A stretch of DNA of 64,000 nucleotides from positions 2,224 through 66,223 of the forward strand of contig JACRKF010000021.1 of the NCBI GenBank assembly GCA_016219865.1, given 5' to 3'. The DNA is from Candidatus Woesearchaeota archaeon. Its GTDB lineage: Archaea; Nanobdellota; Nanobdellia; Woesearchaeales; DSVV01. The position numbers and the translations under genes were made by a program. Shown here piece by piece: positions 3,944 to 63,939 of this stretch (the stretch's first letter is position 1; each line of letters begins with the position of its first letter). The notes beneath the pieces were generated by a model that did no database searches, was not told the origin of the DNA, and saw only the letters and a list, made by a program, of their open reading frames with translations.

Positions 3944-4182
3944 ATATTGGAAACATTTATATATAAGCTTCACCATAAAAATATTTAGAAAAAATTCTAT
4001 TATGTTTTTTCTAAATAAAGAGGTGAATTAAATGGCAGCAAAGAAAAAAAAATCAGGCGCTAAAAAGAAAAAGAAAAGATAATTTTTCTTTTTTTTCTTT
4101 TTTTATCATATATCGCAATTTTAGATCAAAACAACAGATAGTTCTTAGTAAAATTTTTATATAACACTTTTTTCCACTTACT

Positions 4183-5103: not shown

Positions 5104-5202
5104 ATAAAAAACCTAATTACAGATTCCCTATGTCAGAATTGCCAATATCAGAAGATCTTACAAAAAGATTTATTTTTGTAAGATTTTCTAAGAAGTGATA
5201 AA

Positions 5203-5988
5203 ATGAACATTCAACAACTATTAAAAGATTATAAAAAAGGAAAACTGTCTCATAACAAGTTACTATTTCACCTCAAAGAGTATCCTTTTGAAGATTTAGG
5301 ACACACCAAGATAGATCATCACAGAGAGTTGCGCGCAGGCTTTCCTGAAGTAATCTTTGGAAAAGGAAAAACATCAGAACATTTATTCTCAATAATTGAA
5401 AGATTATATCTTAAAAGAGCAGTGATTATCATAACAAAAATCGAGCAAGATATAGCGCAGCAGATTCAGAGAAAATATGATTCTGTTGAATATCACAAAC
5501 TAGCAAAAACGCTTGTTATCTATAATGAATTAAATTTTTCAATAAAATTGAAAAATTTAAAAAAGAAAAAAACACTTAAGACAGGGATTTTAATAATTAC
5601 AGCTGGCACATCGGATATTCCAATTGCTGAAGAAGCTGCAGTTATCTGTGAACAAATGGATAATAAAGTAGAGAAATTATATGATATAGGTGTGGCAGGA
5701 TTGCATCGTTTGCTAGCAAATAAGCAAAAGATATTTGATGCAAAAGTAATTATTGTAATCGCAGGCATGGAAGGAGCATTAGCAAGCGTTATTGCTGGAT
5801 TAGCTAATTGCCCTGTTATAGCTGTGCCAACAAGCATTGGCTACGGCGCAAATTTTAAAGGATTAGCAGCATTATTATCAATGCTCAACTGCTGCTCACC
5901 TGGCGTTACTGTTGTCAACATTGATAATGGCTTTGGCGCAGGCTATGCAGCAAGTAAAATATTGAATGTTAATAAGAGAAAAATTTAA
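5203..5988 (+). CDS. larB: nickel-pincer cofactor biosynthesis protein LarB (PurE-like carboxylase/hydrolase)
   Basis: There is a PurE-like C-terminal domain (ITAGTSDIP...VIAGMEGALASV). The lar gene neighbourhood supports the call. Confidence 0.7.
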   Translation: MNIQQLLKDYKKGKLSHNKLLFHLKEYPFEDLGHTKIDHHRELRAGFPEVIFGKGKTSEHLFSIIERLYLKRAVIIITKIEQDIAQQIQRKYDSVEYHKLAKTLVIYNELNFSIKLKNLKKKKTLKTGILIITAGTSDIPIAEEAAVICEQMDNKVEKLYDIGVAGLHRLLANKQKIFDAKVIIVIAGMEGALASVIAGLANCPVIAVPTSIGYGANFKGLAALLSMLNCCSPGVTVVNIDNGFGAGYAASKILNVNKRKI

Positions 5989-6650: not shown

Positions 6651-7427
6651 ATGACTAAAAATAAATTATACATTGATTGCCCATCTGGAATTGCAGGTGA
6701 TATGTTTATTGCCGCTTGCATTGATTTAGGTGTTAGTATAAACTATCTTCAAACAGAACTGAAAAAACTAAAGATTGACAAATTCTCAATAGCTGCAAAA
6801 ACTGTTGATAAAAAAGGGATTACTGCAAAACATCTTGAAGTAACTATTGAAAAAAATAATCATGAAAACCATCACCATGATGAAAATCATCATCATGAAC
6901 GCCATCTCTCTGATATCAACAAACTTATTGATGAAAGCTCATTATCTACTGGTGTAAAGATGCTTTGCCAAAAGATATTTCACAAACTTGCTTCAGCAGA
7001 AGCATTTGTGCATAACACAACAATTGATAAAGTTCATTTTCATGAAATTGGCGCAATGGATTCAATTATTGATATCATCGGCGCAGCTATTTGTTTGCAA
7101 CAGCTTGGAATAGATGAAGTGCATTGCTCAGAGATACCAATACCTGCTGGCAAGATTATTTGCGATCATGGTGAAATCTCAAATCCAGCTCCTGCAACTC
7201 TCAAACTATTGGAAGGTTTTGAAACATACAAGGTAGATATAAAAAAAGAAATAATAACACCAACATGAGCAGCATTGCTGAAAACACTGGTAAAAGAACA
7301 AAAAGATTTTGAAATGTTTGAAAAAGAGATGAAAGTTAAAAACATCAAGATAATTAAAAAAGGATATGGCGCTGGCGCAATGGATTTAAAAAAACCAAAT
7401 GTACTACGATTGTTATTACTGAGATAA
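6651..7427 (+). pseudogene. larC: LarC (nickel insertase) N-terminal domain interrupted by an in-frame TGA at 7266-7268; the frame stays open for 52 more codons
   Basis: LYIDCPSGIAGDM, a His-rich stretch (HENHHHDENHHHERH) and HFHEIGAMDSIIDI are classic LarC features. The TGA falls on the conserved Gly of TPT-G-AALLKTLV. After the TGA the sequence still reads AALLKTLV...GYGAGAMDL in frame. Confidence 0.7.
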
Positions 7428-7466
7428 GATTACGCCTATAGCGTAATCTTATCTCAGTAATAACAA
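7410..7466. other. 26-bp perfect inverted repeat with a 5-nt loop (strong stem-loop)
   Basis: tgttattactgagataagattacgc-ctata-gcgtaatcttatctcagtaataaca. It overlaps the end of the larC read-through frame and lies upstream of the GalT-like gene. Confidence 0.5.
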
Positions 7467-8490: not shown

Positions 8491-9309
8491 ATGAATTTTA
8501 AAGCCATAAAATTCGACAAAGATATCATTATTGATAATTATATAAAAACAAAAAGTTTAAATATCAACTATTTATATTATAGACTTATGCAAGCAATAAC
8601 ATTCCTCAAAAACGTAGAACATCTTCACAAACCTGTTTTTTCATTGCAAGATGCAGCAAAAATGATTGAGAAAAAAAAAGGATATGCACGTCTTTATCTT
8701 TATCGTTTGAAAAGAAAAGAATATATCAAAGAAATTGAAAAAGGGAAGTATAGTATTTCAGATGACATCTATGAAATTGCCTCAAATGTTGTATTTCCTT
8801 CATATATCTCATTCTTGAGCGCATTTTCTCTATATGGTTTAACAACACAAATACCAAAGAGGATACAAATTATTGCAGCAAAACCAAAAAAAGAATTAAT
8901 AGTTGATGATTCAACTATTGAATTTATTACATTTAAGAATAAGAATATTTTTGGATATGAAAGAACAAAGATTGGAGTTCATTATGGCATGATTGCAGAA
9001 AAAGAAAAAGCAATAATTGATGCATTATACTTACCGCAACATTGCCCAATCAGTGAAACATTTGAAGTGCTTAAGAATAAAGAATTTGACATCGACAAAT
9101 TAGTTGATTATGCTCTGCAGATGGATTCAATAATATTATTAAAAAGACTTGGTTATCTTTTAGAATTAGTAGAATTTAACATTTTTGAAAAAGTAAAACA
9201 TAAGTTAAATCAACGTTATGATCTTTTGAATCCATTTCTCCCTGCTTCAAATAAAGAATGTATAAAATCTATGAAATGGAAACTAATTATAAATGAGGTG
9301 CTTGAATGA
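8491..9309 (+). CDS. AbiEi-like antitoxin / transcriptional regulator (type IV TA)
   Basis: wHTH-like N-terminus. 4-bp overlap with the AbiEii gene. Confidence 0.5.
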   Translation: MNFKAIKFDKDIIIDNYIKTKSLNINYLYYRLMQAITFLKNVEHLHKPVFSLQDAAKMIEKKKGYARLYLYRLKRKEYIKEIEKGKYSISDDIYEIASNVVFPSYISFLSAFSLYGLTTQIPKRIQIIAAKPKKELIVDDSTIEFITFKNKNIFGYERTKIGVHYGMIAEKEKAIIDALYLPQHCPISETFEVLKNKEFDIDKLVDYALQMDSIILLKRLGYLLELVEFNIFEKVKHKLNQRYDLLNPFLPASNKECIKSMKWKLIINEVLE

Positions 9310-10058
9310 TACTGCGAAATCAATTAGGAAAATATGCGCAGATGCTTAACTATGATCTTGGACAGACAGAAAAAGATTATCTGCAGCATTTGTTTTTATT
9401 TTTTCTATCACAACATGATACAACAAACCTTGTGTTCAAAGGCGGAACAGCATTGCAGAAAGTATATGGTTTGAATAGATTTAGCATTGACCTTGATTTT
9501 ACTGCTAAAGAAAATAACATTGACTTCAAGATGTTAATAGAGAAAATTGCAAAGAAAATAACAGATTTTGGTTATAACTGCAAAGTGCAAGAGATAAAGA
9601 CAATTGGAAAAACATTTGTGATAAAAATACAAGGCCCTCTTTATCAAAACAGTCAAGTAAGCACTTGCACATTGCGTATTGAAGTTAGCTTTCGTGAATC
9701 ACTTTTGCTTCAACCAATCCTAAAAGAGATCATTCCATCATACACTGATTTACAACCCTATACTATCCTTGTCATGCAAACAGAAGAGATATTAGCAGAA
9801 AAAGTGCGTGCAATTATGACACGAAACAAACCAAGAGATATATTTGATCTTCATTTCTTGCTGCTGAAAAACACAGCTTTCAATATTGAGTTTATCAACA
9901 AGAAACTAGATTATTATAAGGAAAAATACAATAAAAAAGCATTTTTACAAAAGATAAAAGAAAAAGAGAAAATATGGAATCATGAAATGAAGCAGTATAT
10001 TAGAAATCTACCTTCATTTGAATCTATTGAAAAAGAGATCATAAAAAGAGTCTCTTAG
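9306..10058 (+). CDS. AbiEii/AbiGii-family nucleotidyltransferase toxin
   Basis: The LVFKGGTALQKVYGLNRFSIDLDF motif is typical of DUF1814 (AbiEii). Confidence 0.8.
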   Translation: MILRNQLGKYAQMLNYDLGQTEKDYLQHLFLFFLSQHDTTNLVFKGGTALQKVYGLNRFSIDLDFTAKENNIDFKMLIEKIAKKITDFGYNCKVQEIKTIGKTFVIKIQGPLYQNSQVSTCTLRIEVSFRESLLLQPILKEIIPSYTDLQPYTILVMQTEEILAEKVRAIMTRNKPRDIFDLHFLLLKNTAFNIEFINKKLDYYKEKYNKKAFLQKIKEKEKIWNHEMKQYIRNLPSFESIEKEIIKRVS

Positions 10059-18455: not shown

Positions 18456-18502
18456 TCTTAGAAAACTTATCGTAGTTAACCTCTTTTCGTAATTCCTGAA
18501 TT

Positions 18503-18540
18503 AGTATTTGCTGAATGAGTGAAGCGAATTCGCAAATACT
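18503..18540. repeat. 38-nt hairpin repeat, family B (copy 1, reverse orientation)
   Basis: agtatttgctgaatgagtgaagcgaattcgcaaatact. Related copies at 22411 and 25509. Confidence 0.7.
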
Positions 18541-18608
18541 AAATAAATACTAAAAATATATAAAGTAGAAATTCTTAGTAAAGTAAAAAAACTAAAAAAG
18601 GGGTAATT

Positions 18609-22216: not shown

Positions 22217-22308
22217 TTTCTTTGCCTCCAATTACTTGCTATTATCTATATATCTATATTATAGAGTGCAATCGCCTAACATATTCGACATGTTCGGATT
22301 GCCCAACT

Positions 22309-22339: not shown

Positions 22340-22410
22340 TTAATCTTCAGGTAAGCAACTACCCACATTGATTATAATAGTATAGATTTAAGGTTTATTT
22401 ATAAATATTT

Positions 22411-22448
22411 AGTATTTGCGAACTCACTTCGTTCGTTCAGCAAATACT
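22411..22448. repeat. 38-nt hairpin repeat, family B (copy 2)
   Basis: agtatttgcgaactcacttcgttcgttcagcaaatact. It abuts the stop of the 22448..22774 gene. Confidence 0.7.
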
Positions 22449-23320: not shown

Positions 23321-23364
23321 AATGATTCCCCCAAATCGAGAGAATTTTGTAAAATTCTCTTCAA

Positions 23365-25453: not shown

Positions 25454-25508
25454 ATTCTTAACCTCCTAACAATATAGTATAAGAATAAGAGGTGATATAA
25501 AAAGTTAT

Positions 25509-25546
25509 AGTATTTGCGAACTCGCTTCGCTCGTTCAGCAAATACT
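25509..25546. repeat. 38-nt hairpin repeat, family B (copy 3)
   Basis: agtatttgcgaactcgcttcgctcgttcagcaaatact, about 30 bp downstream of the MutS-like gene end. Confidence 0.7.
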
Positions 25547-25577
25547 ATAATCAGGCAATTCGGAATAAAGATAAAAT

Positions 25578-27515
25578 CTAGCGTATCCTGCTTTTAGCAG
25601 CCTGAAACACATGCTCAGGGAGAACACTTTGAACTGAGATGATACCATAATGCAGACCAATTGCTTCTGCTGGCGCTTCTTGCTTTGTATAACTAAATCC
25701 ATTGCCATTAGAACTCAAAGGAAATAAAGAAACTTGTACTGATGAATTTACCCCTAAGTCTCTAAGATTAGGAAAATGTGTTGGAAGAATTGCGCGAACA
25801 CCTTTATTGAGAAAAGTGTTTTCTGCAATTGCATATAAGATTGCTGCGCCGTCATCTGCTCTTGTTGCAGTTCCCTATTCATCTAATACCACAAGACAAT
25901 ACGATTCACAACCTGTAATCTGCTCATACAGCTCTTTGATTGCTTGTTTTTCAGCAGCAAAACTGCTTTTAATATTTGTTCCTACTTGCCTATGCCTTAC
26001 AAATATTCTTTCATGGATTGAGATTGTAGCAGAACTTGCTGGGACATATAATCCAGCCTGCGCAAAATTCACAAGTATTGCAGCCATATCAGCATAGATT
26101 GACTTTCCTGCTTCATTTGGACCTTCAACTATCTCAACAAGAGTATCGTGATTAAGATAGACGCTATTTGGCATTGGTTTGGAAACATGAAGGAAAGGAT
26201 TTAGGCCATTTTCAATATTGATTATCCTTTCTTCTTTTGGAACAATTGTAGACCTTACCCTTTTTTTTTCTTTAAAAAATTTTGCTAATCCTGCATACAA
26301 AGCAATCTCTTTTTCAATTTTTTTAAAAGAAGTTGTAATATATCTAAATTTCTCGAGGGAATTACGTTCCCCAAATAGATGATATAACTCTTTAGCATCT
26401 TTTGGATCTGCTGCTATAATCTCTTGCAACTTCTTTTTTAATGAAGAAATTCCTTTCTCTTCATTCTTCATTATATGATCCACAGCTCTCTGTATACGAC
26501 CAAGTTGCGGAACATCAGCATCAGTAAGATCTGGAAATGAGATGCTTTCCAGATTTTGAACAACATTTTTTACATTTTTCATAAATTGTTCATAACAAAA
26601 TTGAGCAACATCTTTAGCTTCTTCTGGATCAAAGAGATAGGTTCCACCATCTCTTGATTGGATATTACCCATCCTATGACCATGTTTAGAATGTTTATTC
26701 ATAAATCCTATCCCTGCTTTTCCTTTATAGCACTGAAATAGATCCATGACAGACCAAAGAAGAGCTTTCATAGTAGAATCGAGAGAGATGCAATCATTTT
26801 TTGTCAAAGATTTTAAAAGATCGTCATTAACCATAAAATAATTGATTGCGTCAGTTCGTTGAGCAATAAGATTTCTGTCAGTCAATGGATTAAGCACCCA
26901 ATCAGCAAGTTGAGGTTTGTCTAGATCATATCCTGAAAATAATGCATTAAGCAATCGTGGAGTTGGTTTTTCCATAGTAAAGAAATAACCAAATGTCTTT
27001 TCTGTATCACCACCATAAAGCGCATTATAACTTTCATGATCAAGAACTGCACTATGTAAAAAACTAAGCGAATCATCTTTAGGTAAACTCCCTTTTACTA
27101 ATTGAGGATGCTTTGTATATGATAGATCAATCTCATCAACAAGAACAACAATATTGCCATATTTAACAGAATCCATATTAATTTTAGGCGCAATCACTAT
27201 ATCTGCAGATTCAAGACGAGCTTTGTATCTTTTTGGATCAAGAGAAAACTTTTCAAGAGGAATACTGGACATCCTCATTTTTGTTTGAACAAGAGCCTTG
27301 TAAAGAGAAAGTGCTTCCTTTATATGAACAGGGATATGATCATCACGACGTGAATCATACTTTCCATAATTAAGAGAATCGAGATCATGTTTCCCATTAA
27401 CTTTTGAAGCAATAGTCCCTACAAAAACTGCGCTTAGATTATGATGCAATTCACTCCTTAACTCAAGAATTTTAGCTCCAGTTTCTAATGTTTGTATTTC
27501 CTCTTCAAGCGTCAT
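25578..27515 (-). pseudogene. MutS-family ATPase (domain V) interrupted by an in-frame TAG at 25875-25877; read-through would give about 645 aa
   Basis: Walker A GPNEAGKS. The sequence reads ...SYCLVVLDE-[TAG]-GTATRADDGAAILYAIAE...THF, which matches MutS LLDE-I-GRGTSTyDG...TH. No MutS domain I (GDFYELF) is present. Confidence 0.7.
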
Positions 27516-29137: not shown

Positions 29138-29222
29138 AGAGTAAGAATAATCTTGTGGATTATAAAGATTTTTAATCTGATAATTCTTCTACTAAACACT
29201 CTCTGCCAAAATTGCCCAACAT

Positions 29223-29262
29223 GGAGAATTTTGCAAGAATTGTTATTCTTGTAAAATTCTCC
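29223..29262. repeat. palindromic repeat, family A, copy (ggagaattttgcaagaat-tgtt-attcttgtaaaattctcc)
   Basis: 18-bp arms with one mismatch. It abuts the mutL stop codon. Confidence 0.7.
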
Positions 29263-30960
29263 TTACTCTTTCCTCTTAAACTTCTTCTCAAGTTCATACA
29301 ATGAATAATGTATTATTGCTGGACGTCCATGCGGGCAAGTGAATTTATTTTCGCATTGAAACAATTCTTCCAGAATTCTATAGATCTCTGGAAATTCTAA
29401 TACATCATGCGCTTTTACTGCGCTTCTGCAAGCTGCTCGTGCTATTCTCTCCTCCTTAATTTCCTCAATTTTCACCGTTTCGCCAAGATTTAATTCATCA
29501 ATAACATCATAGATTAATTGTTTCTGTTGTGTTCTTCCAAAAACAGAAGGTAATGAGCGAAGCAGATAACTATCATTACCAAATAACTCAAGATTAAACC
29601 CAGTGCTTTGCAGCAATTCAATATTCTGCTCTATAATAACGCGTTCATTTGGTGTTACATGCAACACAATTGGTGTTAATAATTGCTGCGCATGTATATG
29701 CTTATCTTTGCATTCTTGCAAGAATTTCTCATACATAACTCTTTCATGCGCTGCATGCTGATCAATCAGAAGCATTCCTTTTTCATCTTCTGCAATGATA
29801 AATGTATTATGTATCTTTCCAATTAATCGTATATTCAACACTTGTTTTAAAGGTAATAAAGACGGCGCTTGCGTGAATGCAGTTTGATATTCAATAAACT
29901 GCCCTGCTGAGGACAATATAAGTTTTGCATCAATCTCTTTTGGTCTTGATTCAATCACTTCCGGAATCAAATTTTCTTCAACTAAGCAATCGATAACTGC
30001 TTTCTTTATTGCTTCATAGATTAAATATTCTTTATCAACTCTGACAATTGATTTTGAAGGATGCACATTAACATCAACTTTCTGCGGCAGAATAGTTATA
30101 TTTAAAATAAAGATCGGATGCCTTCCATGAAACAAGAAAGTGCCATAACCATCATAAACAGCTTTGTTAAGAACATAATTTTTAATATACCTTTTATTAA
30201 TGTACAAGCTTTGATATTCTTTATCTGTCCTTGCTGCATTTGGCTTGCCGATATAACCATTAATCTCAACATCGCCATTTGCAAAGTTAACAGCCAGAAA
30301 CTCTTTTGTTAAATCTCTGCCATATATTGTTATAATATTATTCAGCAGATCTGTTGTAGACGGTGAATTAATAATTGTCTTCCCATTATGCGTCAACAGA
30401 AAATGCATCTCTGGATGGATTAATGCATAACGAGTAATGATATCAATAATATGATTAAATTCCACTGCAATTCCTTTCAGATGTTTTTTTCGCGCAGGAA
30501 CATTGTAAAAAAGATCAGAAACAGCAATCATTGTGCCTTGTTTTGCGCTGACATATTCCTGCTTTAAAACAATGCCATTTTCAACTGTTATTGAAACACC
30601 AACATCATTTTCTTTTGTTTTTGTTATCATTTCAAGCTTAGCAATTGAAGCAATACTTGCTAATGCTTCTCCTCGAAATCCAAGAGTTGTAATCTGAAAC
30701 AAATCCTGAAGATTATTTAATTTTGATGTAGTATGGCGCTGTATACTCATCACAACATCATCTTTCTCAATACCTGATCCATTGTCACTCACTTTAACAA
30801 GAGATTTCCCGCCTTCAATAACTTCAATGGAAATATGTGTTGCTTCTGCATCAATTGCATTCTCAACCAATTCTTTTACAACAGAAGCAGGTCTTTCAAT
30901 AACTTCTCCAGCTGCAATCTTATTTATTAAATCTTTATCAAGTTCTTTTATTTTACTCAT
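29263..30960 (-). CDS. mutL: DNA mismatch repair protein MutL (with endonuclease motif)
   Basis: GHKL motifs ELVENAIDA, DNGSGI and GFRGEAL are present. The C-terminal DQHAAHERVMYEKF is the DQHAxxExxxxE nicking motif. Confidence 0.9.
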   Translation of the reverse strand: MSKIKELDKDLINKIAAGEVIERPASVVKELVENAIDAEATHISIEVIEGGKSLVKVSDNGSGIEKDDVVMSIQRHTTSKLNNLQDLFQITTLGFRGEALASIASIAKLEMITKTKENDVGVSITVENGIVLKQEYVSAKQGTMIAVSDLFYNVPARKKHLKGIAVEFNHIIDIITRYALIHPEMHFLLTHNGKTIINSPSTTDLLNNIITIYGRDLTKEFLAVNFANGDVEINGYIGKPNAARTDKEYQSLYINKRYIKNYVLNKAVYDGYGTFLFHGRHPIFILNITILPQKVDVNVHPSKSIVRVDKEYLIYEAIKKAVIDCLVEENLIPEVIESRPKEIDAKLILSSAGQFIEYQTAFTQAPSLLPLKQVLNIRLIGKIHNTFIIAEDEKGMLLIDQHAAHERVMYEKFLQECKDKHIHAQQLLTPIVLHVTPNERVIIEQNIELLQSTGFNLELFGNDSYLLRSLPSVFGRTQQKQLIYDVIDELNLGETVKIEEIKEERIARAACRSAVKAHDVLEFPEIYRILEELFQCENKFTCPHGRPAIIHYSLYELEKKFKRKE

Positions 30961-30990: not shown

Positions 30991-32379
30991 TTAATTGTGA
31001 TTTAATACCTGATTCAGATTATGGTTGCCTTTATCACTAATACCATATCTTTCTCTAACAATTCTTTCTTCTCTATCAGTTAAGCGAGATAATAGTTGTT
31101 TTAATCTAAAACTATCATCTTTTACAAGAGCAGAATCATCAGCTGAAACTGATGCTGTATTCTCAAGCACATCATAATAAGTCATTTCTTTTCCTGTACC
31201 AACGGCATCATCAAGTGAAGTAAGTGTTAATCGTTTTTTGTATTCATCATATGTTTTTTCATCAAGATACTTCCTTTTGCCTGTTATTTCCATCTCATAC
31301 TCTAAATCTTCAAAAGTTCTATGCTTTCTTTCTATCTCTCTATAAGTTGCTGCAAATTTCTCTTGCGCATGCACAGGAGTGCGTATAGTCTTATTCTGAT
31401 CTATAATTGCGCGAGTTACTGCTTGCTTTATCCACCATGTTGCATATGTTGAAAATTTATATCCTCTCTGCCCATCAAATTTTTCTACTGATTTCATTAA
31501 TCCAGTATTTCCTTCTTGAATTAAATCAGAAAGAGTCATATTGTCCAATAAATGAGTGTATTTCTTCGCAATTGAAACAACAAGACGAAGATTTGCATTA
31601 ACAAATTTATTGCGAAGTGAGAAATATTCTCTAAGATCTCTGCCTATGGAAATAAGATCCTCCTTGTAAGCATTATGTATTCTAAATGCTCTTGCATTCC
31701 CAGCTAAAGAATCACCTAATTTATTTTCATAAAACTCCATATAATGACAAGCTGCTGCCTTAAACAAAGAATATGAATTAAAATAAAATGAAGGATCAAC
31801 ACCAAAATCAATGATCTCTTTAAGAAATTCTTTTCCATACTCTACTTTTCTAGCAACAGATGGAATTATTCTGCCATATTTCAACCTTTTTTCACCCAAT
31901 ACCGGGATAATTTCTAAATAAAAGCTTTCAACTGCTTTACGCATTTGATCATATACATTACCATCTTTTTCTACCTCGCCTTTATCAGTTACTTGTTCTT
32001 CATCTTCATTACTTTCTTGAATATAACCCTGTTGTTCAGCATCGCCATTATCAACTTTCTGTTTAGAAATTGCATAAGCAACTCTTTTCTCTAAACGAAA
32101 AACTTTTAACAATGGTTGAAGAACATATTCTGGATTTATACCATAAACTTTTCCGATAAAAGAACTTCTCACTTCACGAAGTCTTTGGGAAAGATTAATT
32201 TCTTCATCTCTTGTTAGTAATTTAATTGCGCCCATACTTTTCATATAAGTAGAACAAGAATCTGAATCAATAAGTTCAGAACCATTAGGCCGAGAATCAC
32301 CTGGAATATAAATACCCTCTGCATAATCATCTAATCCTAATGCATGAATTCTATTCTCCAACCCCACAATCTCTTCCAT
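30991..32379 (-). CDS. bacterial-type sigma-70 family protein (regions 1.2, 2, 3, 4.1), apparently lacking the region 4.2 recognition helix
   Basis: Region 2 [11 protein letters not shown]...[41 protein letters not shown] is nearly identical to the RpoD consensus. Region 1.2 ([16 protein letters not shown]) and region 4.1 ([15 protein letters not shown]) are present. The ORF ends right after NLNQV. Confidence 0.8.
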
Positions 32380-34729: not shown

Positions 34730-36508
34730 CTATATCTCCTTCACCATATACGCACCTTCTAGATGATACCCTAACTTCTTATAATATCCTCGCGTGCCAA
34801 CTGCAGAGATTACGACAATCTTATTTTTTCTATTCTGCCGCGCAATCTCCTCAGCTTTCTGCATCAGTTTTTTGCCAATGCCCTTATGCTGCACAACAGA
34901 TTCTTCGACAGCAGTATCGCCGATTGCCTCTGCTTCTCCATAGACATGCAATTCTCTGATTAATGCAGACGTTTTTGTAATCTCTTTCCTCAAAAATTGT
35001 GAAGGAAACCTTAACCGAACAAACCCCAACAGAATATCCTGCTTTTTGTCCTCATAAGAAATAAAAAACTCTTTGCCATTGCTTGCTTCATATTCTTCAA
35101 CAAGAATCTCTGGATTTCTTGGCAATAATCCCTTTTTATTATACACATGTCCAACTTCTCTGCAGCGAATACAATGACAAACAGGATTTAACTCATCAAC
35201 ATATTGCCGTAAATTTGTTCTATCAACGCCGCCATCTATCATTTTTGTAGGAATATCTCGCTGCACTCGCATGATTCTGCAATATCTTGCAACAAATGGT
35301 TTAAACTCAGCAATCAATTGCGCAGCATCTTTTGTAGTCAAAGGAACAAATCTACCCTCTTGCCATAGTTTATACAACTCAGTGCCTTTAAACACCATGC
35401 ATGGATAAATTTTCAACATGTCTGGCTTATAATCAGAATTGTTAAAGAGCTGTTTCATTCCAGCAAGATCCATCTTTTTTGTTGTTTCAGGCAATCCAGG
35501 CATATAATGAAAGTTTAATTTAAACCCAAGATCTTTTAAGATTCTAACTGCTTCAATATTATCTGCAACAGTATTTCCTCGTTTAATATATTTTAAAACA
35601 TTATCATAAACACTCTGCACGCCAATCTCTACTCGCGTGCAACCAAGCTCTAGCATAAAATTAGCTTCATCGAGCTTTGCGCAATCACTTCTTGTTTCTA
35701 ATGTTATGCCAACACATTTGATAAAAGAAGTTTGATTTCTCTCCTTTTCTTTCGCAAGTGTTGTCTCACCCTTAAGTTTCAAAAGTTTTTCCTGAATATT
35801 CTTTGTTCTCTGCTTGTCACCAACTGCTCCAGGCAATTCAAAAAACTTCCTAAACTTTACAACATCAAATCTTTTTTTTGCAAAAAAAAGATTTGAGAAA
35901 TCATTCATAGCTTTGAATGCATAGGTAATAAATTGCTCTTGATATTTTCTAGCAAAACTTGTAAATGTGCCGCCCATAACAATCAACTCAACTTTATCAA
36001 AATTATGACCAAGCACAACATATTGTTCTAACCTATTAAAAACTTGCAGATAACTGTCATAATTATTACGAATACCTCTCATAGTGCTTGGCTCATGTCC
36101 TGTATAAGATTTTGGCACAGTTCCAAATGGCGAATTAGGCCCGCCAGGACAATAGATGCATTGCGCTTGTGTCGGACAAGCATATGGCGCTGACATGATT
36201 GCTGCAACACTTACTCCTGAAATTGATCGCGTTGGTTTTGTCTGCAAATGTTTAAGATTAGGCAAATCTTTAGCAGGAGCTTCAAGCAATATCTGGATAT
36301 TAGTTGGAGGAGCTTTAATGCCATATTTTTTGCAGAGTTTGTTTTTTAAAGAATTAATCTTATCTTGATTGAGTGATTTCTGTTTAAGAGTTTTAAGCAG
36401 CTCTTTATAGAATGCAAACTTGTTTTGCTTGTTCTTCTTTAGTTGAACAAGAGTTATCTTTTCTACGTTGTTATTGCCATTATTATTATTGTTGATTTGC
36501 TGTAACAT
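34730..36508 (-). CDS. elp3: tRNA uridine(34) acetyltransferase Elp3 (radical SAM + GNAT)
   Basis: Radical-SAM motif CIYCPGG. The C-terminal GNAT carries GIGKKLM. The N-terminus has an Asn-rich extension. Confidence 0.85.
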   Translation of the reverse strand: MLQQINNNNNGNNNVEKITLVQLKKNKQNKFAFYKELLKTLKQKSLNQDKINSLKNKLCKKYGIKAPPTNIQILLEAPAKDLPNLKHLQTKPTRSISGVSVAAIMSAPYACPTQAQCIYCPGGPNSPFGTVPKSYTGHEPSTMRGIRNNYDSYLQVFNRLEQYVVLGHNFDKVELIVMGGTFTSFARKYQEQFITYAFKAMNDFSNLFFAKKRFDVVKFRKFFELPGAVGDKQRTKNIQEKLLKLKGETTLAKEKERNQTSFIKCVGITLETRSDCAKLDEANFMLELGCTRVEIGVQSVYDNVLKYIKRGNTVADNIEAVRILKDLGFKLNFHYMPGLPETTKKMDLAGMKQLFNNSDYKPDMLKIYPCMVFKGTELYKLWQEGRFVPLTTKDAAQLIAEFKPFVARYCRIMRVQRDIPTKMIDGGVDRTNLRQYVDELNPVCHCIRCREVGHVYNKKGLLPRNPEILVEEYEASNGKEFFISYEDKKQDILLGFVRLRFPSQFLRKEITKTSALIRELHVYGEAEAIGDTAVEESVVQHKGIGKKLMQKAEEIARQNRKNKIVVISAVGTRGYYKKLGYHLEGAYMVKEI

Positions 36509-38058: not shown

Positions 38059-38476
38059 TTATACCTTCACACCCAACTTCTTCAAATCATCTTTCAATTG
38101 CTCTGCATCCTGAAAAAGTATTCCATGGATACCAACTGCATTTGCGCCATCAACATATTTCTGCATGTCATCAATAAAAACAGTTTCTTCTGGTTTGCAA
38201 TTAATTTTTTGCAGAGCAATTTTATAAATTTCTGGCTGTGGTTTTACAAAGATAATCTTGCGGCAGTGGTTTATTCAACAGCTGCTGTATTCTCTGCCAA
38301 ACCTCTTCTTCATCAATCAACCCTCGTTGAAATGCTTTATCGTTCAGTGCTTTATCATAAGCTTGTTTTGCAGTTTCTAATGAAACATTAAAAGAATGAG
38401 CAATTTCTTCTGTAACAATATAATCAGTTTTATTTACTACAACTCCACCCATGTCAAAGATAACAGCTTTTATCAT
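38059..38476 (-). pseudogene. HAD-superfamily hydrolase disrupted by a frameshift
   Basis: The N-part, complement(38222..38476), reads MIKAVIFDMGGVVV (motif I). The C-part, in another frame at complement(38059..38274), reads KPQPEIYKIALQKINCKPEETVFIDD...ANAVGI (motifs II/III). The two frames overlap around 38225-38275. Confidence 0.6.
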
Positions 38477-38544
38477 TCTTTTTTGAATTCTTTAGTTATT
38501 TATTAATTTTCTGCAAGATTTCCCCTGCTCGAATTGCCTGGCTA

Positions 38545-38573
38545 GGAGAATTTTGCACTTTTGCAAAATTCTC
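38545..38573. repeat. palindromic repeat, family A, copy (ggagaattttgca-cttt-tgcaaaattctc)
   Basis: Left flank cgaattgcctggctag resembles the flank of the 43120 copy. It lies inside a doubtful 78-aa ORF (38496..38732). Confidence 0.7.
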
Positions 38574-38755
38574 TTGATTATCTTCTTTTACCTTCTTTCG
38601 TAGTTCTATGTACTTTTTCCATTCTAAATAAACATCATCATTGCTTTTTGATTTATTTTCATCATGGATGCATTGTTCTTGATTTTCATTGTTGAATTGT
38701 TCTTCTTGATTGATATCTTCCACAATAATCACACTCTTATCTTAGTTTAACATTA

Positions 38756-42406: not shown

Positions 42407-42530
42407 TAATATTCTCGAGTTTGTTTCACTCACTCAGAAAATAATACTCTTATACTTAAATTAATAAAGAACTTATATGCGCATAGGAAAAGACAAGATT
42501 TAAATTAACCTATTAAATAGTATTTTCTGT

Positions 42531-43769
42531 ATGAACGAAGTGAATACGAAAATACTTAAGATCAACAAAACACCCTGGCATTCATGGTGCACTGGAAAGA
42601 TTTCAAAAGGCTGCGCATATTGTGTGCAAGGAAGAAAGTTAGTGTTATTTATCACAGGATTATGCCCGCAAAGATGTTTTTATTGCCCTGTAGGAGAACA
42701 AAAGTTTGGCAATGATGTTGTATATGCTAATGAATGGAAATTAGAAGATCCGAACAATCCTGTTGAATTAATAAAAGAAGCAGAACTAACGCAAGCAAAA
42801 GGCGCTGGAATTACTGGCGGAGATCCATTGATGAATATTAAGAGATGCTGCAATTATATCCAATTATTAAAAAAAAAGTTTGGAAAAGAATTTCATATTC
42901 ATTTATACACGCCATTGAAATTAGTAACAAAAGAAAGATTACAAAAACTATCTGCTGCTGGACTTGATGAGATAAGGTTTCACCCTGATTTAGATGATAA
43001 TTCTTTATGGAACAGGATTAAAATTGCAAAAAAGTACAGATGGGAAATTGGTATAGAGATTCCAGCAATTCCCGGATATGAAAAAAAAACAATGAGACTG
43101 ATTGATTACATTATTTTTGCAGACTCCCTATTGCCCGAATTGCCTAATGAGGAGAATTTTGCATTTTTGCAAAATTCTCCAAACAAAGTATCATTCATCA
43201 ATCTTAATGAACTTGAACTTTCAGATACTGAAACAAAACATTATACATTGCCAACAAAAGGGTTTAAGGCAAAAGATAATATTAGTTATGGTGTAAAAGG
43301 AAGCAAAGAGATGGCAATAAAAATGCTGGAATATGCTAAAGAAAAAGGATTATCTGCGCATTTTTGCACTGCAAGACTAAAAGATGGTATACAAGTCAAG
43401 AAAAGATTACAAATTAGAGCAGAAAACATTAAATTACTATTTGATGAAAAAACAGAAGATGGAACATTACTGCGCTGCTGCATATACCTCCCAGAACTTG
43501 CGCCAGGAATGAATTATAGAGAAAAACTAAGAAACGCTGATAAAAATGATTTTATTGAAAAACTAACAGTTATTCGCAATAAATTATTAGAAACTTTAAC
43601 ATTAAGTGAAAAAGAAATAGTTATTGATTCAAACAAATGCAGATTAATCATTCCAAGAAGTGTTGCAAAACAATATGCAAATAAAATAAAGAAATATAAT
43701 TTACTTCCAGCATTAGTTGAAGAATATCCTACTCAAGATGGATTTGAGGTTGAGATTGAATTTTTGTAA
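42531..43769 (+). CDS. radical SAM domain protein
   Basis: The CPQRCFYC (Cx3Cx2C) motif is preceded by a CAYC motif. The gene contains an in-frame copy of the family A repeat at 43120-43180. Confidence 0.7.
   Translation: MNEVNTKILKINKTPWHSWCTGKISKGCAYCVQGRKLVLFITGLCPQRCFYCPVGEQKFGNDVVYANEWKLEDPNNPVELIKEAELTQAKGAGITGGDPLMNIKRCCNYIQLLKKKFGKEFHIHLYTPLKLVTKERLQKLSAAGLDEIRFHPDLDDNSLWNRIKIAKKYRWEIGIEIPAIPGYEKKTMRLIDYIIFADSLLPELPNEENFAFLQNSPNKVSFINLNELELSDTETKHYTLPTKGFKAKDNISYGVKGSKEMAIKMLEYAKEKGLSAHFCTARLKDGIQVKKRLQIRAENIKLLFDEKTEDGTLLRCCIYLPELAPGMNYREKLRNADKNDFIEKLTVIRNKLLETLTLSEKEIVIDSNKCRLIIPRSVAKQYANKIKKYNLLPALVEEYPTQDGFEVEIEFL
43120..43180. repeat. palindromic repeat, family A, copy inside a coding sequence (ggagaattttgca-tttt-tgcaaaattctcc, plus the conserved left flank cagactccctattgcccgaattgcctaatga)
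   Basis: It is read in frame as ...DSLLPELPNEENFAFLQNSPNK... within the radical SAM protein. Confidence 0.7.
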
Positions 43770-47798: not shown

Positions 47799-49070
47799 CT
47801 AGATTTCAATAATCTCTCCTAACTTTGGAACTATTGCTTTAACACTTTTAGGAACTGTTTTTGCTAATGCTAAACATGATTCTTTATCTCCATGATTGCA
47901 AATAACTTTCTTTGGTTTTAAAGCAGTAATTATCTGAATAAGCTCTTTTTTTCCAGCATGCGCAGAGAAATCAAATTGTTCTATTGAGCATTTCACTGCT
48001 AATCCAATGCCGTCAATAAATGCTTTTTGCTGGTCTAATAATAGTCTGCCATTGCAACCTTCCGCTTGAAACCCAGTCAATAATATTGCTGTCTTTGGAT
48101 CATTGTATAGAAATTTAATATAATCTAACACAGGACCACCTGCAACCATTCCAGATGTTGTAATAAAAATACCTTGTTCTTTTGTAATATCAATACGATG
48201 TTGATAACTTTTTACATACTGCACTATTTTCAATGCTTTGCGCAGTGCAACGCTATTATTTATTGAATCAGGATCTGAAAGAAGTGTATCAGTTACTTTT
48301 CTAGCCATACCATCTAAATATATTGGCACCATGAAATTCTGCTTAGATAAAAATATCACTAATTCTTGCGCGCGCGCAACAGAAAATGTTGGAATAATCA
48401 CTTTTCCACCTTTCTTAATTGTATCTTTTATTATTTGTAAAAATCTAGCTTCAGTTTCTGCTCTATTTTTGTGATCTCTGTCGCCATATGTTGATTCGCA
48501 AATCATAACATCAATCTTTTGTTTTAATTGCTGATGAAAATGCAAGCCATTTGTTAAACGTGTAGTTAATGTATTGATATCTCCTGTATAAAGAATTGTT
48601 TTGCCGTCAATTTCTAAAAGTATTGAACTGCTTCCAGGAATGTGACCGGCATCAAGAAATGTGCAAGAAAGATCTCCTTGCTTAAATTGTTTATTATAAT
48701 CAACAATTGTCATAAGACTCATTATTTTAGTAATATTTTCTTCAGTATATGCAGGATCTTTCACAGACAACATTTCAATATGAATAGAATCATTCAATAA
48801 TATCTTTGTTATTTTCTTTGTTGTTTTTGTGCAATAAATGCTGCAGTTTAATCCATTATGATTTAACAAAGGCAATGCGCCTGTATGATCAAGATGCGCA
48901 TGACTTAAAAATACAGCTTGAATCTGACGAGGATCAATTAGATTAATAAGCGGATATTCCTGTCCATTCTGACTAATTTTAATTCCAGCATCCAGAAGAT
49001 ACTTATCATTAACTAGAATACACGACCTGCCAACTTCTTCAGCGCTGCCTAAAAATTGAATTGTCACCAT
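47799..49070 (-). CDS. MBL-fold beta-CASP ribonuclease (aCPSF2 / RNase J-like)
   Basis: HAHLDHTGALP MBL motif. The beta-CASP region is present. About 420 aa with no KH domains. Confidence 0.8.
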   Translation of the reverse strand: MVTIQFLGSAEEVGRSCILVNDKYLLDAGIKISQNGQEYPLINLIDPRQIQAVFLSHAHLDHTGALPLLNHNGLNCSIYCTKTTKKITKILLNDSIHIEMLSVKDPAYTEENITKIMSLMTIVDYNKQFKQGDLSCTFLDAGHIPGSSSILLEIDGKTILYTGDINTLTTRLTNGLHFHQQLKQKIDVMICESTYGDRDHKNRAETEARFLQIIKDTIKKGGKVIIPTFSVARAQELVIFLSKQNFMVPIYLDGMARKVTDTLLSDPDSINNSVALRKALKIVQYVKSYQHRIDITKEQGIFITTSGMVAGGPVLDYIKFLYNDPKTAILLTGFQAEGCNGRLLLDQQKAFIDGIGLAVKCSIEQFDFSAHAGKKELIQIITALKPKKVICNHGDKESCLALAKTVPKSVKAIVPKLGEIIEI

Positions 49071-49318
49071 CTTTTTTACCTTAAAATAATTTACTTATTT
49101 TAAAATAATTCACTGCGTAAATTATTTTATCATCATGAACTACGAATTGCATACAAAGATGCCAATTGTATATTAATTGCGGGAAAGTATACGATATACG
49201 CTTTCATATAATAAGATATTATTGTAAGTACTGATTTATAATGGTTTTGAATTTTTTATAGTTATTGGGACAATAATTTTGATTTTTGATTATCAAGAAG
49301 TAATAATTTATCATTATT

Positions 49319-49348
49319 AGAGAATTTTTCTTCTCAGAAAAATTCTCT
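49319..49348. repeat. palindromic repeat, family A, variant copy (agagaatttttc-ttctca-gaaaaattctct)
   Basis: 12-bp arms sharing the GAGAATTTT/AAAATTCTC ends. It lies in the divergent promoter region between the RNase and psd. Confidence 0.55.
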
Positions 49349-49388
49349 TACCGAAAGCTTTATTAAAATAGAACATAATAATCAGAGA

Positions 49389-50084
49389 ATGCTTACTGAC
49401 ATCCTATTGATTGGTATTTCTTCATTAACAGCAATAGTGTTAGCATTCTACATCTTCTACAAATTCTATTTCCTTAGAAATCCAAAAAGAACTGTTCCAA
49501 AAGGAAATAACATTGTAAGCCCAGCTGATGGAAAGATTGTAAAGATTATAAAAGTATCTTCAAGTAAGACAGATAACAAAAATAAGACAAACAAATCTAA
49601 AACTGAACATCTTACAATAACAAAAGGAATGTTTGGCAAAATCAAAACATTAATTGAAGATGTCGATAAAGAATGTTATTTAATCCAAATAATGCTTACT
49701 CCTTTTGATGTGCATTACCAACGAGCTCCAATTGATGGGACAGTAACAATTGTTTCATACACAGAAGGAAAGTTTCAGAATGCTGTAAAAGATGCAGCTT
49801 CATTGCGTTGCTTGGAAAATGAAAAGAATGAAATGGTATTCACGCAAAAACTCACAAATAAAAACAAAAAGTTCTCAGTTAAAGTAATACAAATAGCTGG
49901 AGTATTAGCAAGAAGAATTGTTTGCTTTGTACGCGCTGGAAAAGAAGTTAAAAAAGGTGAAGAAATTGGTCTAATCACATTAGGAAGTCAAGTAAGCTTA
50001 ATTATTCCAAGCAATTGCAGTTTAAAGATAAAAGAAGGTCAATATATATATGGCGGAAAAACAATAATTGCAGATATTAAATAA
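49389..50084 (+). CDS. psd: phosphatidylserine (archaetidylserine) decarboxylase proenzyme
   Basis: PFDVHYQRAPIDG (PSD motif) and the LGSQ self-cleavage site (G-S) are present. Confidence 0.8.
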   Translation: MLTDILLIGISSLTAIVLAFYIFYKFYFLRNPKRTVPKGNNIVSPADGKIVKIIKVSSSKTDNKNKTNKSKTEHLTITKGMFGKIKTLIEDVDKECYLIQIMLTPFDVHYQRAPIDGTVTIVSYTEGKFQNAVKDAASLRCLENEKNEMVFTQKLTNKNKKFSVKVIQIAGVLARRIVCFVRAGKEVKKGEEIGLITLGSQVSLIIPSNCSLKIKEGQYIYGGKTIIADIK

Positions 50085-54298: not shown

Positions 54299-54413
54299 TT
54301 CATCACTCTTTTCTTCGCAAAAATAAGTTGCAAAAGGATATAAGTCATAAAAAATGACTCAATAACAAAAAAAGATTTAAAAATTGTAAAAAATCTTTGA
54401 TTTTTTACAATTT

Positions 54414-54869
54414 TTATTCAATTAATAATCTTACCTTATCAGGATCATATATCCAATCACTTGCTAATCTTTCTGTAGCTTTATAATACTTTACAATACG
54501 CTTAATCTTTGATTCAGTCAATTGCAAACCTCGTTTTGCTACCATGTCCTTTTTATTTTGCTCTAAATGCTTTTTTAACATAATACTATTCTTAATTAAC
54601 GCAAGCAAATCTTCAGGTAATGCGCCTTGTAATTTCTTTTCATCTAAGAATTGCGTTATGCTTTTATTTAACAACACTCTTACACTAGGAACACCATAAG
54701 TATCTCTTAAGATAATTCCTATTTGTGAAGGAGTATTTTTTTCTTTTGCAAGCTTTACAATAAGCATCTCAACTTCTTTTGGTTTATACCTAACCCAGCT
54801 TGGAATTGTTTTTTTCTGAGGTCTTTTTGAACCTGATTTTCCATGTTTTCCTGAATACATTCTTCCCAT
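54414..54869 (-). CDS. rps15: 30S ribosomal protein S15 (S13e)
   Basis: MGRMYSGKHGKSGSKRP...IPSWV matches archaeal S15/S13e. Confidence 0.9.
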   Translation of the reverse strand: MGRMYSGKHGKSGSKRPQKKTIPSWVRYKPKEVEMLIVKLAKEKNTPSQIGIILRDTYGVPSVRVLLNKSITQFLDEKKLQGALPEDLLALIKNSIMLKKHLEQNKKDMVAKRGLQLTESKIKRIVKYYKATERLASDWIYDPDKVRLLIE

Positions 54870-57740: not shown

Positions 57741-57766
57741 GGAGAATTTTGCTTTGCAAAATTCTC
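57741..57766. repeat. palindromic repeat, family A, copy (ggagaattttgc-ttt-gcaaaattctc)
   Basis: It lies in the divergent region between ftsZ and an MNT gene. Confidence 0.65.
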
Positions 57767-57839
57767 TTATTTATCTTTTGGTATTCTTGCATTTATGCTT
57801 TGAGCAAGTTCTGGAAGATTTGTTAATGTGTAACATATC

Positions 57840-62424: not shown

Positions 62425-63142
62425 GAAAATAGTAATCAATAATCAAGAGTATATTGTTGAAATCTATACTGAACAGAGAAATAACGTAACAGTATCAATA
62501 AGAAAAAATAAGATTATCATAAAAGTTCCAATCAGCATTAACAGAGAAGAACAGTTTCGCAATGTTCTTGAGATGAAACAATGGGCTGTGAAAAAAATAA
62601 CAAGAGATCCAGAAAGATTTAAGAAAAGAGAAGAAAAACAATATAGATCAGGCGATATTCTGCAAATAAACAACGAACAGTTTTTACTTGAGATAGGATA
62701 CTGCGACAATAGTTCAAGTTCTGGAAGAATTAGAGAGAACAAGATTGTATTGGACATATCCAGTAGATTAAACGAAGAAATAAAAAGAAAGCATATTATA
62801 GCATTGCTAAGCAGAATTATCGCAAAAAGACGTCTGCCTATCTTAGAAAGGAAGATTCATGAGCTTAACCAACAACATTTCCAAAAGGAGATCAATAGAA
62901 TTTTCTTCAAGAATATGAATTCACGATGGGGAAGCTGCTCAGAAAATGCAAACATTAACATATCAACACGACTTTTGTTTGCGCCAGAGATTGTGCTGGA
63001 ATATGTTTGCATCCATGAATTGGCTCATTTGATTGAACAGAACCATTCATCTAATTTTTGGAATTTAGTGCAGCAAGCAATGCCAGATTATAAAGACCAA
63101 GAACAATGGCTCAAGAAAAACGGAGATTCATGCCAATTTTAA
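62414..63142 (+). CDS. DUF45/YgjP-family (M48-like, SprT-like) metallopeptidase
   Basis: CIHELAHLIEQNHSSNFWNLV...MPDY is the HExxH...NHS.FW signature. Confidence 0.75.
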   Translation: MRTEKIVINNQEYIVEIYTEQRNNVTVSIRKNKIIIKVPISINREEQFRNVLEMKQWAVKKITRDPERFKKREEKQYRSGDILQINNEQFLLEIGYCDNSSSSGRIRENKIVLDISSRLNEEIKRKHIIALLSRIIAKRRLPILERKIHELNQQHFQKEINRIFFKNMNSRWGSCSENANINISTRLLFAPEIVLEYVCIHELAHLIEQNHSSNFWNLVQQAMPDYKDQEQWLKKNGDSCQF

Positions 63143-63237
63143 ATTTCTTATGTCTGGATTACCCAACTGAGAGAGTTCTGATCAAAGCTATATCGCACTT
63201 AATATTTAATTTTTTTGCTTTCGCAAAAGCAAAAAAA

Positions 63238-63939
63238 TTAATGCTTATACTTTCCATGCCTTGATTTCATCTTATCTTTCATTGTAGAAACAGTATGCTT
63301 TATCTTCTCAACAAAACTTGCTGCATGCTTATCAATTGCATGCTTTGTTGCTGCAACTGCTGCTGCAATATTTGGCGAGAACACACCCAGCACAGTATGG
63401 ATGTTTTTGATTCTATTATGATATCTTTGTAAGTAAACAAGATTTTCAATTTTATATTTTTGCGGCATTGGCACAACTTCATCAGGATAGCCAAGTGTAA
63501 TAATCGCATGCGGTCGTGCATAATCAGGAATACTTAAAATTCTCTTTAATGCAACTTCATCAAAAGCTCCAACCCAGCAAGCGCCTAAGCCATAATGATG
63601 CGCAGCTAGCAACATATTTTCACATCCTGCTGCAACATTCTGGATAGTATAAAGACGTTCTCCCCGCAAACCATAGAATTGTTTTGGACGCTTTGTCTCA
63701 GCGCATGCTACAATAATAACAGGAGCTTGCTCCATCCAATATTGCTGCAATGATGCTTCTGCTATTGCTTTTCTCTTAGATTCATCTGTAACAACTATAA
63801 ACCGAAATTCCTGCAGATTGCCTGCTGTTGGAGCTAATGTGCCTGCTTCAACAACTCTTCCAACTAGTTCCCATTCTACTGGAATATCGACGTATTTCCT
63901 GATAGAACGTCGCGTATAGATGCACTCAAGAGTATCCAT
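63238..63939 (-). CDS. nitroreductase-family protein
   Basis: The N-terminus RRSIRKY...P...NLQ matches the nitroreductase fold. It carries a basic C-terminal extension. Confidence 0.8.
   Translation of the reverse strand: MDTLECIYTRRSIRKYVDIPVEWELVGRVVEAGTLAPTAGNLQEFRFIVVTDESKRKAIAEASLQQYWMEQAPVIIVACAETKRPKQFYGLRGERLYTIQNVAAGCENMLLAAHHYGLGACWVGAFDEVALKRILSIPDYARPHAIITLGYPDEVVPMPQKYKIENLVYLQRYHNRIKNIHTVLGVFSPNIAAAVAATKHAIDKHAASFVEKIKHTVSTMKDKMKSRHGKYKH

Follow-up and report, generated by a model that had tools for sequence, protein, structure and literature searches.

A dispersed hairpin repeat as a probable in-frame insertion in a radical-SAM gene of a Woesearchaeota lineage

When a palindromic repeat lies inside an open reading frame (ORF) and is translated with it, has the repeat entered the gene, or does ancestral coding sequence resemble the repeat by coincidence? 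The question is raised by a radical-SAM gene in a 64-kb stretch of DNA (the window, meaning the whole stretch analysed) from a metagenome-assembled genome (MAG) of Candidatus Woesearchaeota, locus-tag prefix HZA96. The contig is archaeal, with a GC content of 32% across the window, whose genes include L15e, eIF2-alpha, RtcB, Trm1, FtsZ and ELP3 (Pfam on window ORFs). A first-pass annotation had placed a palindrome of a repeat family, here called family A, with its conserved left flank wholly inside the ORF 42531-43769, and had read it as translated in frame with the ORF undisturbed. Both statements hold: TTGCC-N7-GARAATTTTGCA occurs four times in the window, at 22299, 29212, 38534 and 43140, each time on the + strand, and the 412-aa ORF reads through the last of these. 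Taking the evidence together, we think it likely that the segment is a copy of a short, non-autonomous dispersed repeat that inserted in frame in the radical-SAM gene, and that the gene tolerated it.

The filled and the empty site

The sister genome used for comparison is MAG J4232 (GCA_018303075.1), in which the radical-SAM gene has J4232_01890 and J4232_01930 as neighbours; the radical-SAM DNA of its lineage was compared at locus L001 and at L130, a 16-kb syntenic locus. The host gene and the parts of the segment are:

42531-43769, + strand: radical-SAM host gene, 412 aa; Radical_SAM PF04055, E=3e-13; PflA-like uncharacterised family.
43113-43178, + strand: inserted family-A element, 66 nt, 22 codons; boundary +/- about 2-6 nt; 66-nt gap in L001 and L130, 22-residue gap in 20 orthologues.
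43113-43150, + strand: left module of the in-gene element, ATTTTTGCAGACTCCCTATTGCCCGAATTGCCTAATGAG, read I-F-A-D-S-L-L-P-E-L-P-N-E.
43151-43180, no strand: hairpin of the in-gene element, perfect 13 bp with a 4-nt loop.

The host protein, identical to NCBI MBI5392698.1 (HZA96), has the CX3CX2C motif at C45/C49/C52, and its gene is single-copy and conserved throughout Woesearchaeota. The stretch IFADSLLPELPNEENFAFLQNS of the window is faced by a 22-column gap in 20 of 20 orthologues (53-83% identity, full-length alignment, outgroups included), and the closest of them, P0002, has LIDYI-ADK-VSF at this site; the insertion of about 20 residues that had been suspected is one of 22. Retention of the peptide by the orthologues, which would have made the segment ancestral and its likeness to the repeat a coincidence, is excluded by the same 20 proteins and by a clean 66-nt gap in the DNA. 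In the MAFFT alignment with L001 this gap is single, with 88% identity over aligned columns and 83% within compared codons: the window reads GATTACATT, then the segment ATTTTTGCAGAC...AAAATTCT, then CCAAACAAAG, where L001 reads GACTATATCG, the gap and CAGATAAAG. The blastn alignment with L130 breaks at window 43111/43185, a net 66 nt, and the DNA around the gap is 84-88% identical in L001 and L130. The segment is missing from the J4232-lineage protein in all four assemblies. It is flanked by ...TACATT on the left and CCAAAC... on the right (AAAGTATC beyond the right junction), and its left boundary is backed by another family-A copy, at 38506, which has ATTTTCTGCAAGAT in common with ATTTTTGCAGAC. 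The span first given, 43120-43180, was right in location and slightly short in extent, as the empty site of the sister gives about 43113-43178. Judged from these alignments, the in-gene copy is an insertion, and one that postdates the split of the HZA96 and J4232 lineages.

The same comparison gave a different outcome for ELP3 (34730-36508, - strand), tried as a second insertion in a coding sequence (CDS). ELP3 has about 42 extra residues relative to M. infernus Elp3, a perfect 15-bp hairpin at 35865-35896 and GAATTGCCTGG in the E-L-P-G frame (FFELPG). DPANN orthologues have the whole segment, FFELP included, which makes it ancestral; on these sequences it is a clade-specific ancestral insert, and it serves as a negative control for the insertion test.

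The hairpin of the radical-SAM gene, GGAGAATTTTGCA-TTTT-TGCAAAATTCTCC, agrees with its earlier description at 0 mismatches, and with up to 3 mismatches allowed the window has two sites for the palindrome pattern, where 100 shuffles give an expectation of 0.00. As DNA it folds at -14.4 kcal/mol (z = -4.4). The frame across it reads ...IFADSLLPELPNEENFAFLQNSPNK..., the predicted protein including the peptide DSLLPELPNEENFAFLQNSPNK, and three of the six frames are open through this copy. The copy also has private variants (CTAATGAG, loop TTTT) found in no other window copy.

The AlphaFold model of the protein (mean predicted local distance difference test score, pLDDT, 86.6; predicted template modelling score, pTM, 0.85) resembles a viperin-like partial TIM barrel, and its pLDDT falls below 50 at two places only, residues 1-7 and 199-217. 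Between helix 184-196 and strand 222-226, in the alpha5-to-beta6 link, stands the insert, where the model predicts a low-confidence loop, so that the loop check first suggested came out in favour of an insertion. Radical-SAM barrels bind the cluster and S-adenosylmethionine (SAM) at the C-terminal ends of the strands, with alpha-to-beta loops on the opposite face, and the insert loop would accordingly be placed opposite the Fe-S/SAM site. In the orthologue alignment all invariant family residues are kept (100+ invariant or near-invariant, including CX3CX2C and GGDP). The 412 codons are free of frameshifts and stops, and against the empty-site orthologue the ratio of nonsynonymous to synonymous divergence (dN/dS) is 0.14 at dS 0.72, a value that averages both lineages over their whole divergence and cannot date the insertion. 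By these measures the gene with its insert looks functional, and it may have remained so because the loop would face away from the Fe-S/SAM site.

The repeat family in the two genomes

In the window, family A comprises five full, three hairpin-only and one left-module-only copies. All of the full copies (5/5, a small sample) are on the + strand. The copies of all three kinds, other than the radical-SAM one, are:

5109-5196, + strand: divergent family-A copy; left module CAGATTCCCTATGTCAGAATTGCC kept; different perfect 17-bp hairpin; reproduced in Logan contig L128.
22271-22345, + strand: family-A copy; compensatory G>A / C>T in the stem; upstream of L15e; 46 nt from a family-B hairpin (see below).
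29184-29268, + strand: family-A copy; 18-bp extended hairpin; abuts the mutL stop codon; reproduced in independent Logan contig L127.
38506-38580, + strand: family-A copy flanked by convergent genes; of all copies the most like the in-gene one (75% over 68 nt).
23339-23360, no strand: hairpin-only relative, GAGAATTTT / AAAATTCTC.
49319-49348, no strand: hairpin-only relative, missing from the orthologous J4232 spacer.
57741-57768, no strand: hairpin-only relative, GGAGAATTTTGC TTT GCAAAATTCTC.
63141-63180, + strand: left-module-only relic, ATGTCTGGATTACCCAACTGAG; no hairpin.

A repeat search joins the four loci that have the TTGCC motif over 32-48 nt, and an nhmmer profile from five copies (these four and a metagenome copy, L115) recovers the fifth full window copy, 5109-5196, on which it was not trained. 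The core TGYYNRAATTGCC-N7 is common to copies 5109, 22271, 29184, 38506 and L115, and the left module accompanies the hairpin at a fixed 7-nt spacing in six loci. Pairwise identity of the copies is 54-75% over 68 aligned nt, with conservation mainly in the TGYYNRAATTGCC core and the stem. Window copies other than the radical-SAM one are intergenic, and neither the ends nor the orientation of the genes beside them show a regular pattern; two of them (5109 and 29184) are matched at 100% by the independent Logan contigs. The hairpin is the sole robust structure in each copy, with fold z-scores of -3.4 to -5.7 against shuffles. The nine hairpins have 11-18 paired positions each, all without mismatch and none with more than a single G-T pair, and they differ from each other by changes in both arms (GAGAATTTT/AAAATTCTC against GAAAATTTT/AAAATTTTC; TTTGCA/TGCAAA against TTTTCT/AGAAAA).

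From JGI metagenomes a strict scan brought up a single true match, L115 (Ga0209211_10008262, 31% GC), whose element, CATTGCTCGAATTGCCTAATAAAGAGAATTTTGCAGAAATGCAAAATTCTCT, lies inside a 354-aa NMD3 gene (PF04981, E=3e-37). Its orientation and frame are those of the radical-SAM copy, and it reads ...NRSLLELPNKENFAEMQNSLKE... (SLLELPNKENFAEMQNS). Exact-sequence look-ups identified this element-bearing NMD3 as J4232_01050, from the MAG that has the empty radical-SAM gene, and an element-free NMD3 orthologue (P0122) as HZA96_05790, from the window's own genome. By locus tags, HZA96 is thus filled in the radical-SAM gene and empty in NMD3, and J4232 is empty in the radical-SAM gene and filled in NMD3; the two sisters therefore bear the element in different conserved genes. 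In NMD3 it occupies a linker whose length varies, and the net gain there is only 6 aa relative to HZA96 and 9-12 relative to others. Within the 16 kb around the J4232 radical-SAM gene nhmmer found no family-A copy, nor did it find one in L130-L132. The spacer between the beta-CASP and PS-decarboxylase genes (window 49040-49420, L130 11915-12190) has three indels between the sisters, two of which coincide with window-only hairpins at 49101-49129 and 49319-49348.

J4232 also has an IS200/IS605-type Y1 transposase (PF01797, E=7e-14; its HUH motif is HVH), 4.4 kb upstream of the radical-SAM gene. The block of Y1, helix-turn-helix (HTH) and small-ORF genes stands in place of the window's P-type ATPase / HZA96_02400 region; synteny with L130 starts 47 nt upstream of the radical-SAM ATG, at window 42484, and tblastn of the Y1 protein against the window was negative. 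Both the NCBI and the ENA contigs of J4232 end at or beside the Y1 gene, which suggests a multi-copy insertion sequence. Hairpins that resemble those of a second family in the window, B, flank this gene. A family-B hairpin has a 9-bp stem, a single T bulge, a 4-bp stem and a loop of 11 nt around a GCGAAGC/ACGAAGTG core:

L130 82-513, - strand: Y1 transposase, 143 aa; beside an AsnC-type HTH gene and about nine small ORFs without a Pfam match.
18502-18541 (+), 22395-22448 (-), 25508-25547 (-) and 42519-42556 (+), and L130 about 17-75 and 697-733: family-B hairpins, those of L130 being the hairpins with the same apex beside the Y1 gene.
42519-42556, + strand: family-B hairpin at the host-gene start; loop GAACGAAGTGA; overlaps and supplies the ATG; kept in L001 and L130.

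Every window copy of family B is upstream of, and co-oriented with, a gene (an unknown 499-aa ORF, L15e, eIF2-alpha and radical-SAM), and the stems differ between copies by compensatory changes. The start codon and the first nine or so codons of the radical-SAM gene (MNEVNTKIL) lie within its family-B hairpin, the ATG arising there from a compensatory change of the stem, GAAC>GTAT. The J4232 lineage (L001, L130) has this start copy too, and more distant orthologues start later. We rejected the idea that families A and B are the two ends of one composite element: neither their spacing nor their relative orientation is constant, and in the radical-SAM gene they are separated by 560 nt of conserved coding sequence.

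Further searches concerned the origin and wider distribution of the repeat. At the gathering threshold Rfam has no family in the window, the copies giving only sub-threshold matches to generic hairpins. The concatenated element peptides had no match at E<=10 in a set of 5.8 billion proteins, a query too short for significance, and the viral contigs scanned for the repeat gave partial chance matches only. A contig scan with the hairpin-only pattern AATTTTGCA-N3-25-TGYAAAATTYTC was discarded as too loose, with 112 chance matches in unrelated bacteria (L002-L113), as was metagenome match L114, a chance hit in a bacterial lpxB-region gene. That the left module might be the C-terminus of a genuine small ORF (LPN-stop) was also rejected, for the upstream frames close within a few codons.

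Weighing the explanations

In the explanation that we favour, the repeat unit would consist of a left module of about 38 nt followed by a perfect hairpin of 12-18 bp, specific to a small Woesearchaeota lineage. A copy landed in the radical-SAM gene after HZA96 and J4232 had split; because its 66 nt make up whole codons and the landing frame is free of stops, the ORF stayed intact and gained 22 residues, which the model of the partial TIM barrel places in the loop from helix 5 to strand 6. A sister copy may have done likewise in NMD3 of J4232. With less assurance, one may suppose that only frame-keeping copies survive in essential genes, since intergenic copies often bear a stop at the same codon, and that the hairpin itself is maintained or recognised, since the stems are perfect with compensatory changes; recognition could be of single-stranded DNA (ssDNA) by a trans-acting HUH/Y1-type enzyme, or of a terminator-like RNA or DNA structure. 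A Y1/HUH single-strand mechanism would fit the anatomy of family A, with mobilisation in trans. We would offer only tentatively the bolder version, that this is an archaeal counterpart of the Rickettsia palindromic elements (RPEs), mobile now or recently, which repeatedly enters housekeeping genes in one preferred orientation and frame to give the peptide module S-L-L-x-E-L-P-N-x-E-N-F-A-x-x-Q-N-S, is moved on ssDNA by a Y1/HUH transposase like that of J4232, and is, together with family B, a regular source of coding sequence in reduced DPANN genomes.

Several observations weigh against an inserted mobile repeat. At the radical-SAM junction there is no target-site duplication (TSD), TACATT and CCAAAC beside the element facing ...TATATC GCAGAT... 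in the empty site, and terminal inverted repeats (TIRs) were not found, the ends being unpaired in the minimum-free-energy or centroid structure of any copy. No transposase Pfam domain is present in the 40 window ORFs tested, and the hairpins flanking the Y1 gene in L130 are of the family-B type (apex GCGAAGC/ACGAAGTG), not family A. The low identity of the copies (54-75%) shows no sign of a recent burst. The NMD3 event appears less clean, and linker loss or a 5'-truncated copy may be involved. No contig reached by way of the neighbouring genes extends to the radical-SAM junctions as an independent assembly of them, and the DNA examined from HZA96 and J4232, about 100 kb in total, is of limited scope.

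Part of this would suit a one-off capture of filler DNA, in which a break or template switch was patched with a terminator-like hairpin and the family is a regulatory or terminator motif and not mobile. TIRs, TSD and transposase would then not be expected, diverged copies would be no surprise, several copies do abut stop codons (for example mutL at 29263), and GCAGAT in the empty site resembles GCAGAC near the left end of the element, a possible microhomology. However, ATTTTT 5' of GCAGAC also occurs in copy 38506, so that the microhomology model needs two indels, the copies hold no consistent position relative to the ends of flanking genes, and the left module travels with the hairpin in six loci at the fixed 7-nt spacing. 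We rate filler capture, the main rival, lower, as unlikely, since J4232 NMD3, a second gene and in the sister genome, holds this two-module unit too, in the same orientation and frame. It is also quite improbable that the radical-SAM gene was inactivated and is a young pseudogene with an ORF open by chance. By our estimate a frame over 22 AT-rich codons stays open by chance in about 17% of cases, three of six frames are indeed open, and dN/dS, spanning the whole divergence, is of little help here in dating the event; yet the gene is conserved as a single copy across Woesearchaeota, the 100+ invariant or near-invariant residues with CX3CX2C and GGDP are kept, no frameshift or stop has arisen in 412 codons at dS 0.72, and the predicted loop location is benign.

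Archaeal mRNAs can carry bulge-helix-bulge (BHB) introns (cbf5 of Crenarchaeota), and an element as strongly structured as this one might be removed from the RNA as such an intron or something similar, leaving the protein unchanged. The fold of 43105-43190 on both strands consists, however, of one simple 3' hairpin without a BHB motif: no helix joins 43113 with 43178, and there are no 3-nt bulges around a 4-bp helix. Other copies are intergenic, and a kept frame without stops, superfluous for an intron, is nonetheless seen in both in-CDS copies, which makes splicing a very improbable explanation. We give equally little credence to an assembly artefact, a repeat worked into the gene sequence by the assembler. 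The window does come from a MAG contig, and the Logan assembly of the same run (SRR12113407) has no full-length identical radical-SAM protein, its neighbouring contigs being short; but the gene is collinear and in frame on both sides of the element, the private variants (CTAATGAG, TTTT loop) exclude copying from other window copies, and other copies came out identical from an independent assembler. An ancestral segment, lost from every orthologue sampled and like the repeat only by coincidence, is a logical possibility only and next to negligible: 20 of 20 orthologues, outgroups included, would imply many independent precise deletions, and the sequence matches five other loci.

Other features of the window may be recorded here. 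At 38059-38476 (-) and 38496-38732 (-), by copy 38506, two adjacent HAD-hydrolase-like fragments (84 aa, annotated as HZA96_02385, and 35 aa) suggest a frameshifted gene, and a doubtful 78-aa minus-strand ORF runs in reverse through the copy (...QENFAKVQNSPSQAIRAGEILQKINK) and may match an annotated small gene. Beside copy 29184, mutL (29263-30960, -) adjoins a sigma-70 family protein, 30991-32379 (-) (Sigma70_r2, r1_2; at NCBI, RNA polymerase sigma factor), in an otherwise archaeal contig; the sigma70-mutL-methyltransferase linkage is found again in an independent Logan contig. A MutS-like ORF, 25875-27515 (-), ends at position 85 of 188 of the MutS_V model and may be truncated or split. In the LarB-like gene 5203-5988 (+), a perfect 14-bp hairpin at 5530-5560 (TTAAATTTTTCAAT AAA ATTGAAAAATTTAA) encodes LNFSIKLKNLK, at a place where the linker is longer by about 11 residues than in L. 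plantarum LarB, a distant comparator. Fifteen of the 18 hairpins with perfect stems >=10 bp lie in the 14.5% of the window that is non-ORF. Long perfect intergenic hairpins unrelated to family A are at 7410-7466 (26 bp), 54378-54416 (18), 63206-63241 (16) and 3982-4017 (13). An AbiEi/AbiEii type IV toxin-antitoxin pair occupies 8491-10058 (+), the window has no tRNAs, and GC skew, considered as an indicator of replication direction, tracks gene orientation and is hence uninformative.

Known systems and significance

Rickettsia, Wolbachia and Methanocaldococcus jannaschii are known to have palindromic repeats in frame within genes, as far as the sources cited here describe them. The RPEs are selfish repeats that sit in frame in Rickettsia housekeeping genes, in loops where the structure permits them (Ogata et al. 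2000, 2002, as treated in PMC2229807 and PMC10969869), and for the RPE-bearing gmk of R. conorii translation or activity has been addressed by proteomics or enzymology, as PMC2229807 relates. The resemblance to RPEs that had been proposed stands for behaviour and not for homology or anatomy. Family A is likewise a dispersed palindromic repeat, multi-copy in its genome, intergenic as well as fused in frame in conserved housekeeping genes, with orthologues that have no insert, an insert in a predicted loop and no clear target duplication. It differs in being 66 nt long, against 100-150 nt for RPEs; in having one subterminal hairpin, in the 3' half only, beside a non-palindromic left module, against a long end-to-end stem; and in its archaeal (DPANN) host, with two in-CDS cases here against dozens in Rickettsia. 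Length and fold set it apart from families RPE-1 to RPE-10, and no homology to them came to light, there being no Rfam or other match and no direct comparison with RPE sequences.

The direct precedent is archaeal: in-frame palindromic repeats of M. jannaschii protein genes (Suyama, Lathe & Bork 2005, cited in PMC2229807) are repeats with open reading frames fused into protein genes. Their host is a hyperthermophile of the Euryarchaeota and not one of the Woesearchaeota, and the precedent concerns the behaviour. The remark that such insertions are not commonly reported in archaea needs this qualification, that the M. jannaschii case, on the citation in PMC2229807, precedes the present one; for DPANN archaea the literature searched gives no account of such repeats.

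Small elements of other kinds share some of these traits. Family A is hairpin-centred, has no TIR or TSD and occurs on one strand (5/5), as in REP/REPIN-RAYT systems and the small elements of IS200/IS605 (PATEs of Haloquadratum), and J4232 has a Y1 (HUH) transposase gene. It has no GTAG-like 5' tetranucleotide, however, and forms single hairpins, not inverted doublets; the Y1 gene of J4232 has hairpins of the other family at its sides; and REPs are extragenic by definition. With miniature inverted-repeat transposable elements (Correia, ERIC, RUP; Sulfolobus SM1-4) it has in common that it is small, AT-rich, multi-copy and without transposase coding, with occasional in-frame fusions, but TIRs and TSDs, both tested for in family A, were not found.

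We take the element to be a further case of a known behaviour, of interest mainly for its clean reciprocal pair of filled and empty sites. The genomes of DPANN archaea are small and streamlined; to our knowledge no genetic system exists for these archaea, and next to nothing has been described of their mobile repeats. Because a filled/empty pair exists in two sisters, with the reciprocal state in a second gene, small hairpin repeats would appear to reshape conserved enzymes in this Woesearchaeota lineage as RPEs do in Rickettsia. The pair amounts to a natural experiment on the tolerance of proteins to loop insertions, and the insertion sites could be used as strain-typing markers. Annotators should bear in mind that an 'insertion' peculiar to one lineage of a DPANN protein may stem from a repeat. 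Should a Y1 transposase prove to be involved, biology of the REP/RAYT type would be extended to this group.

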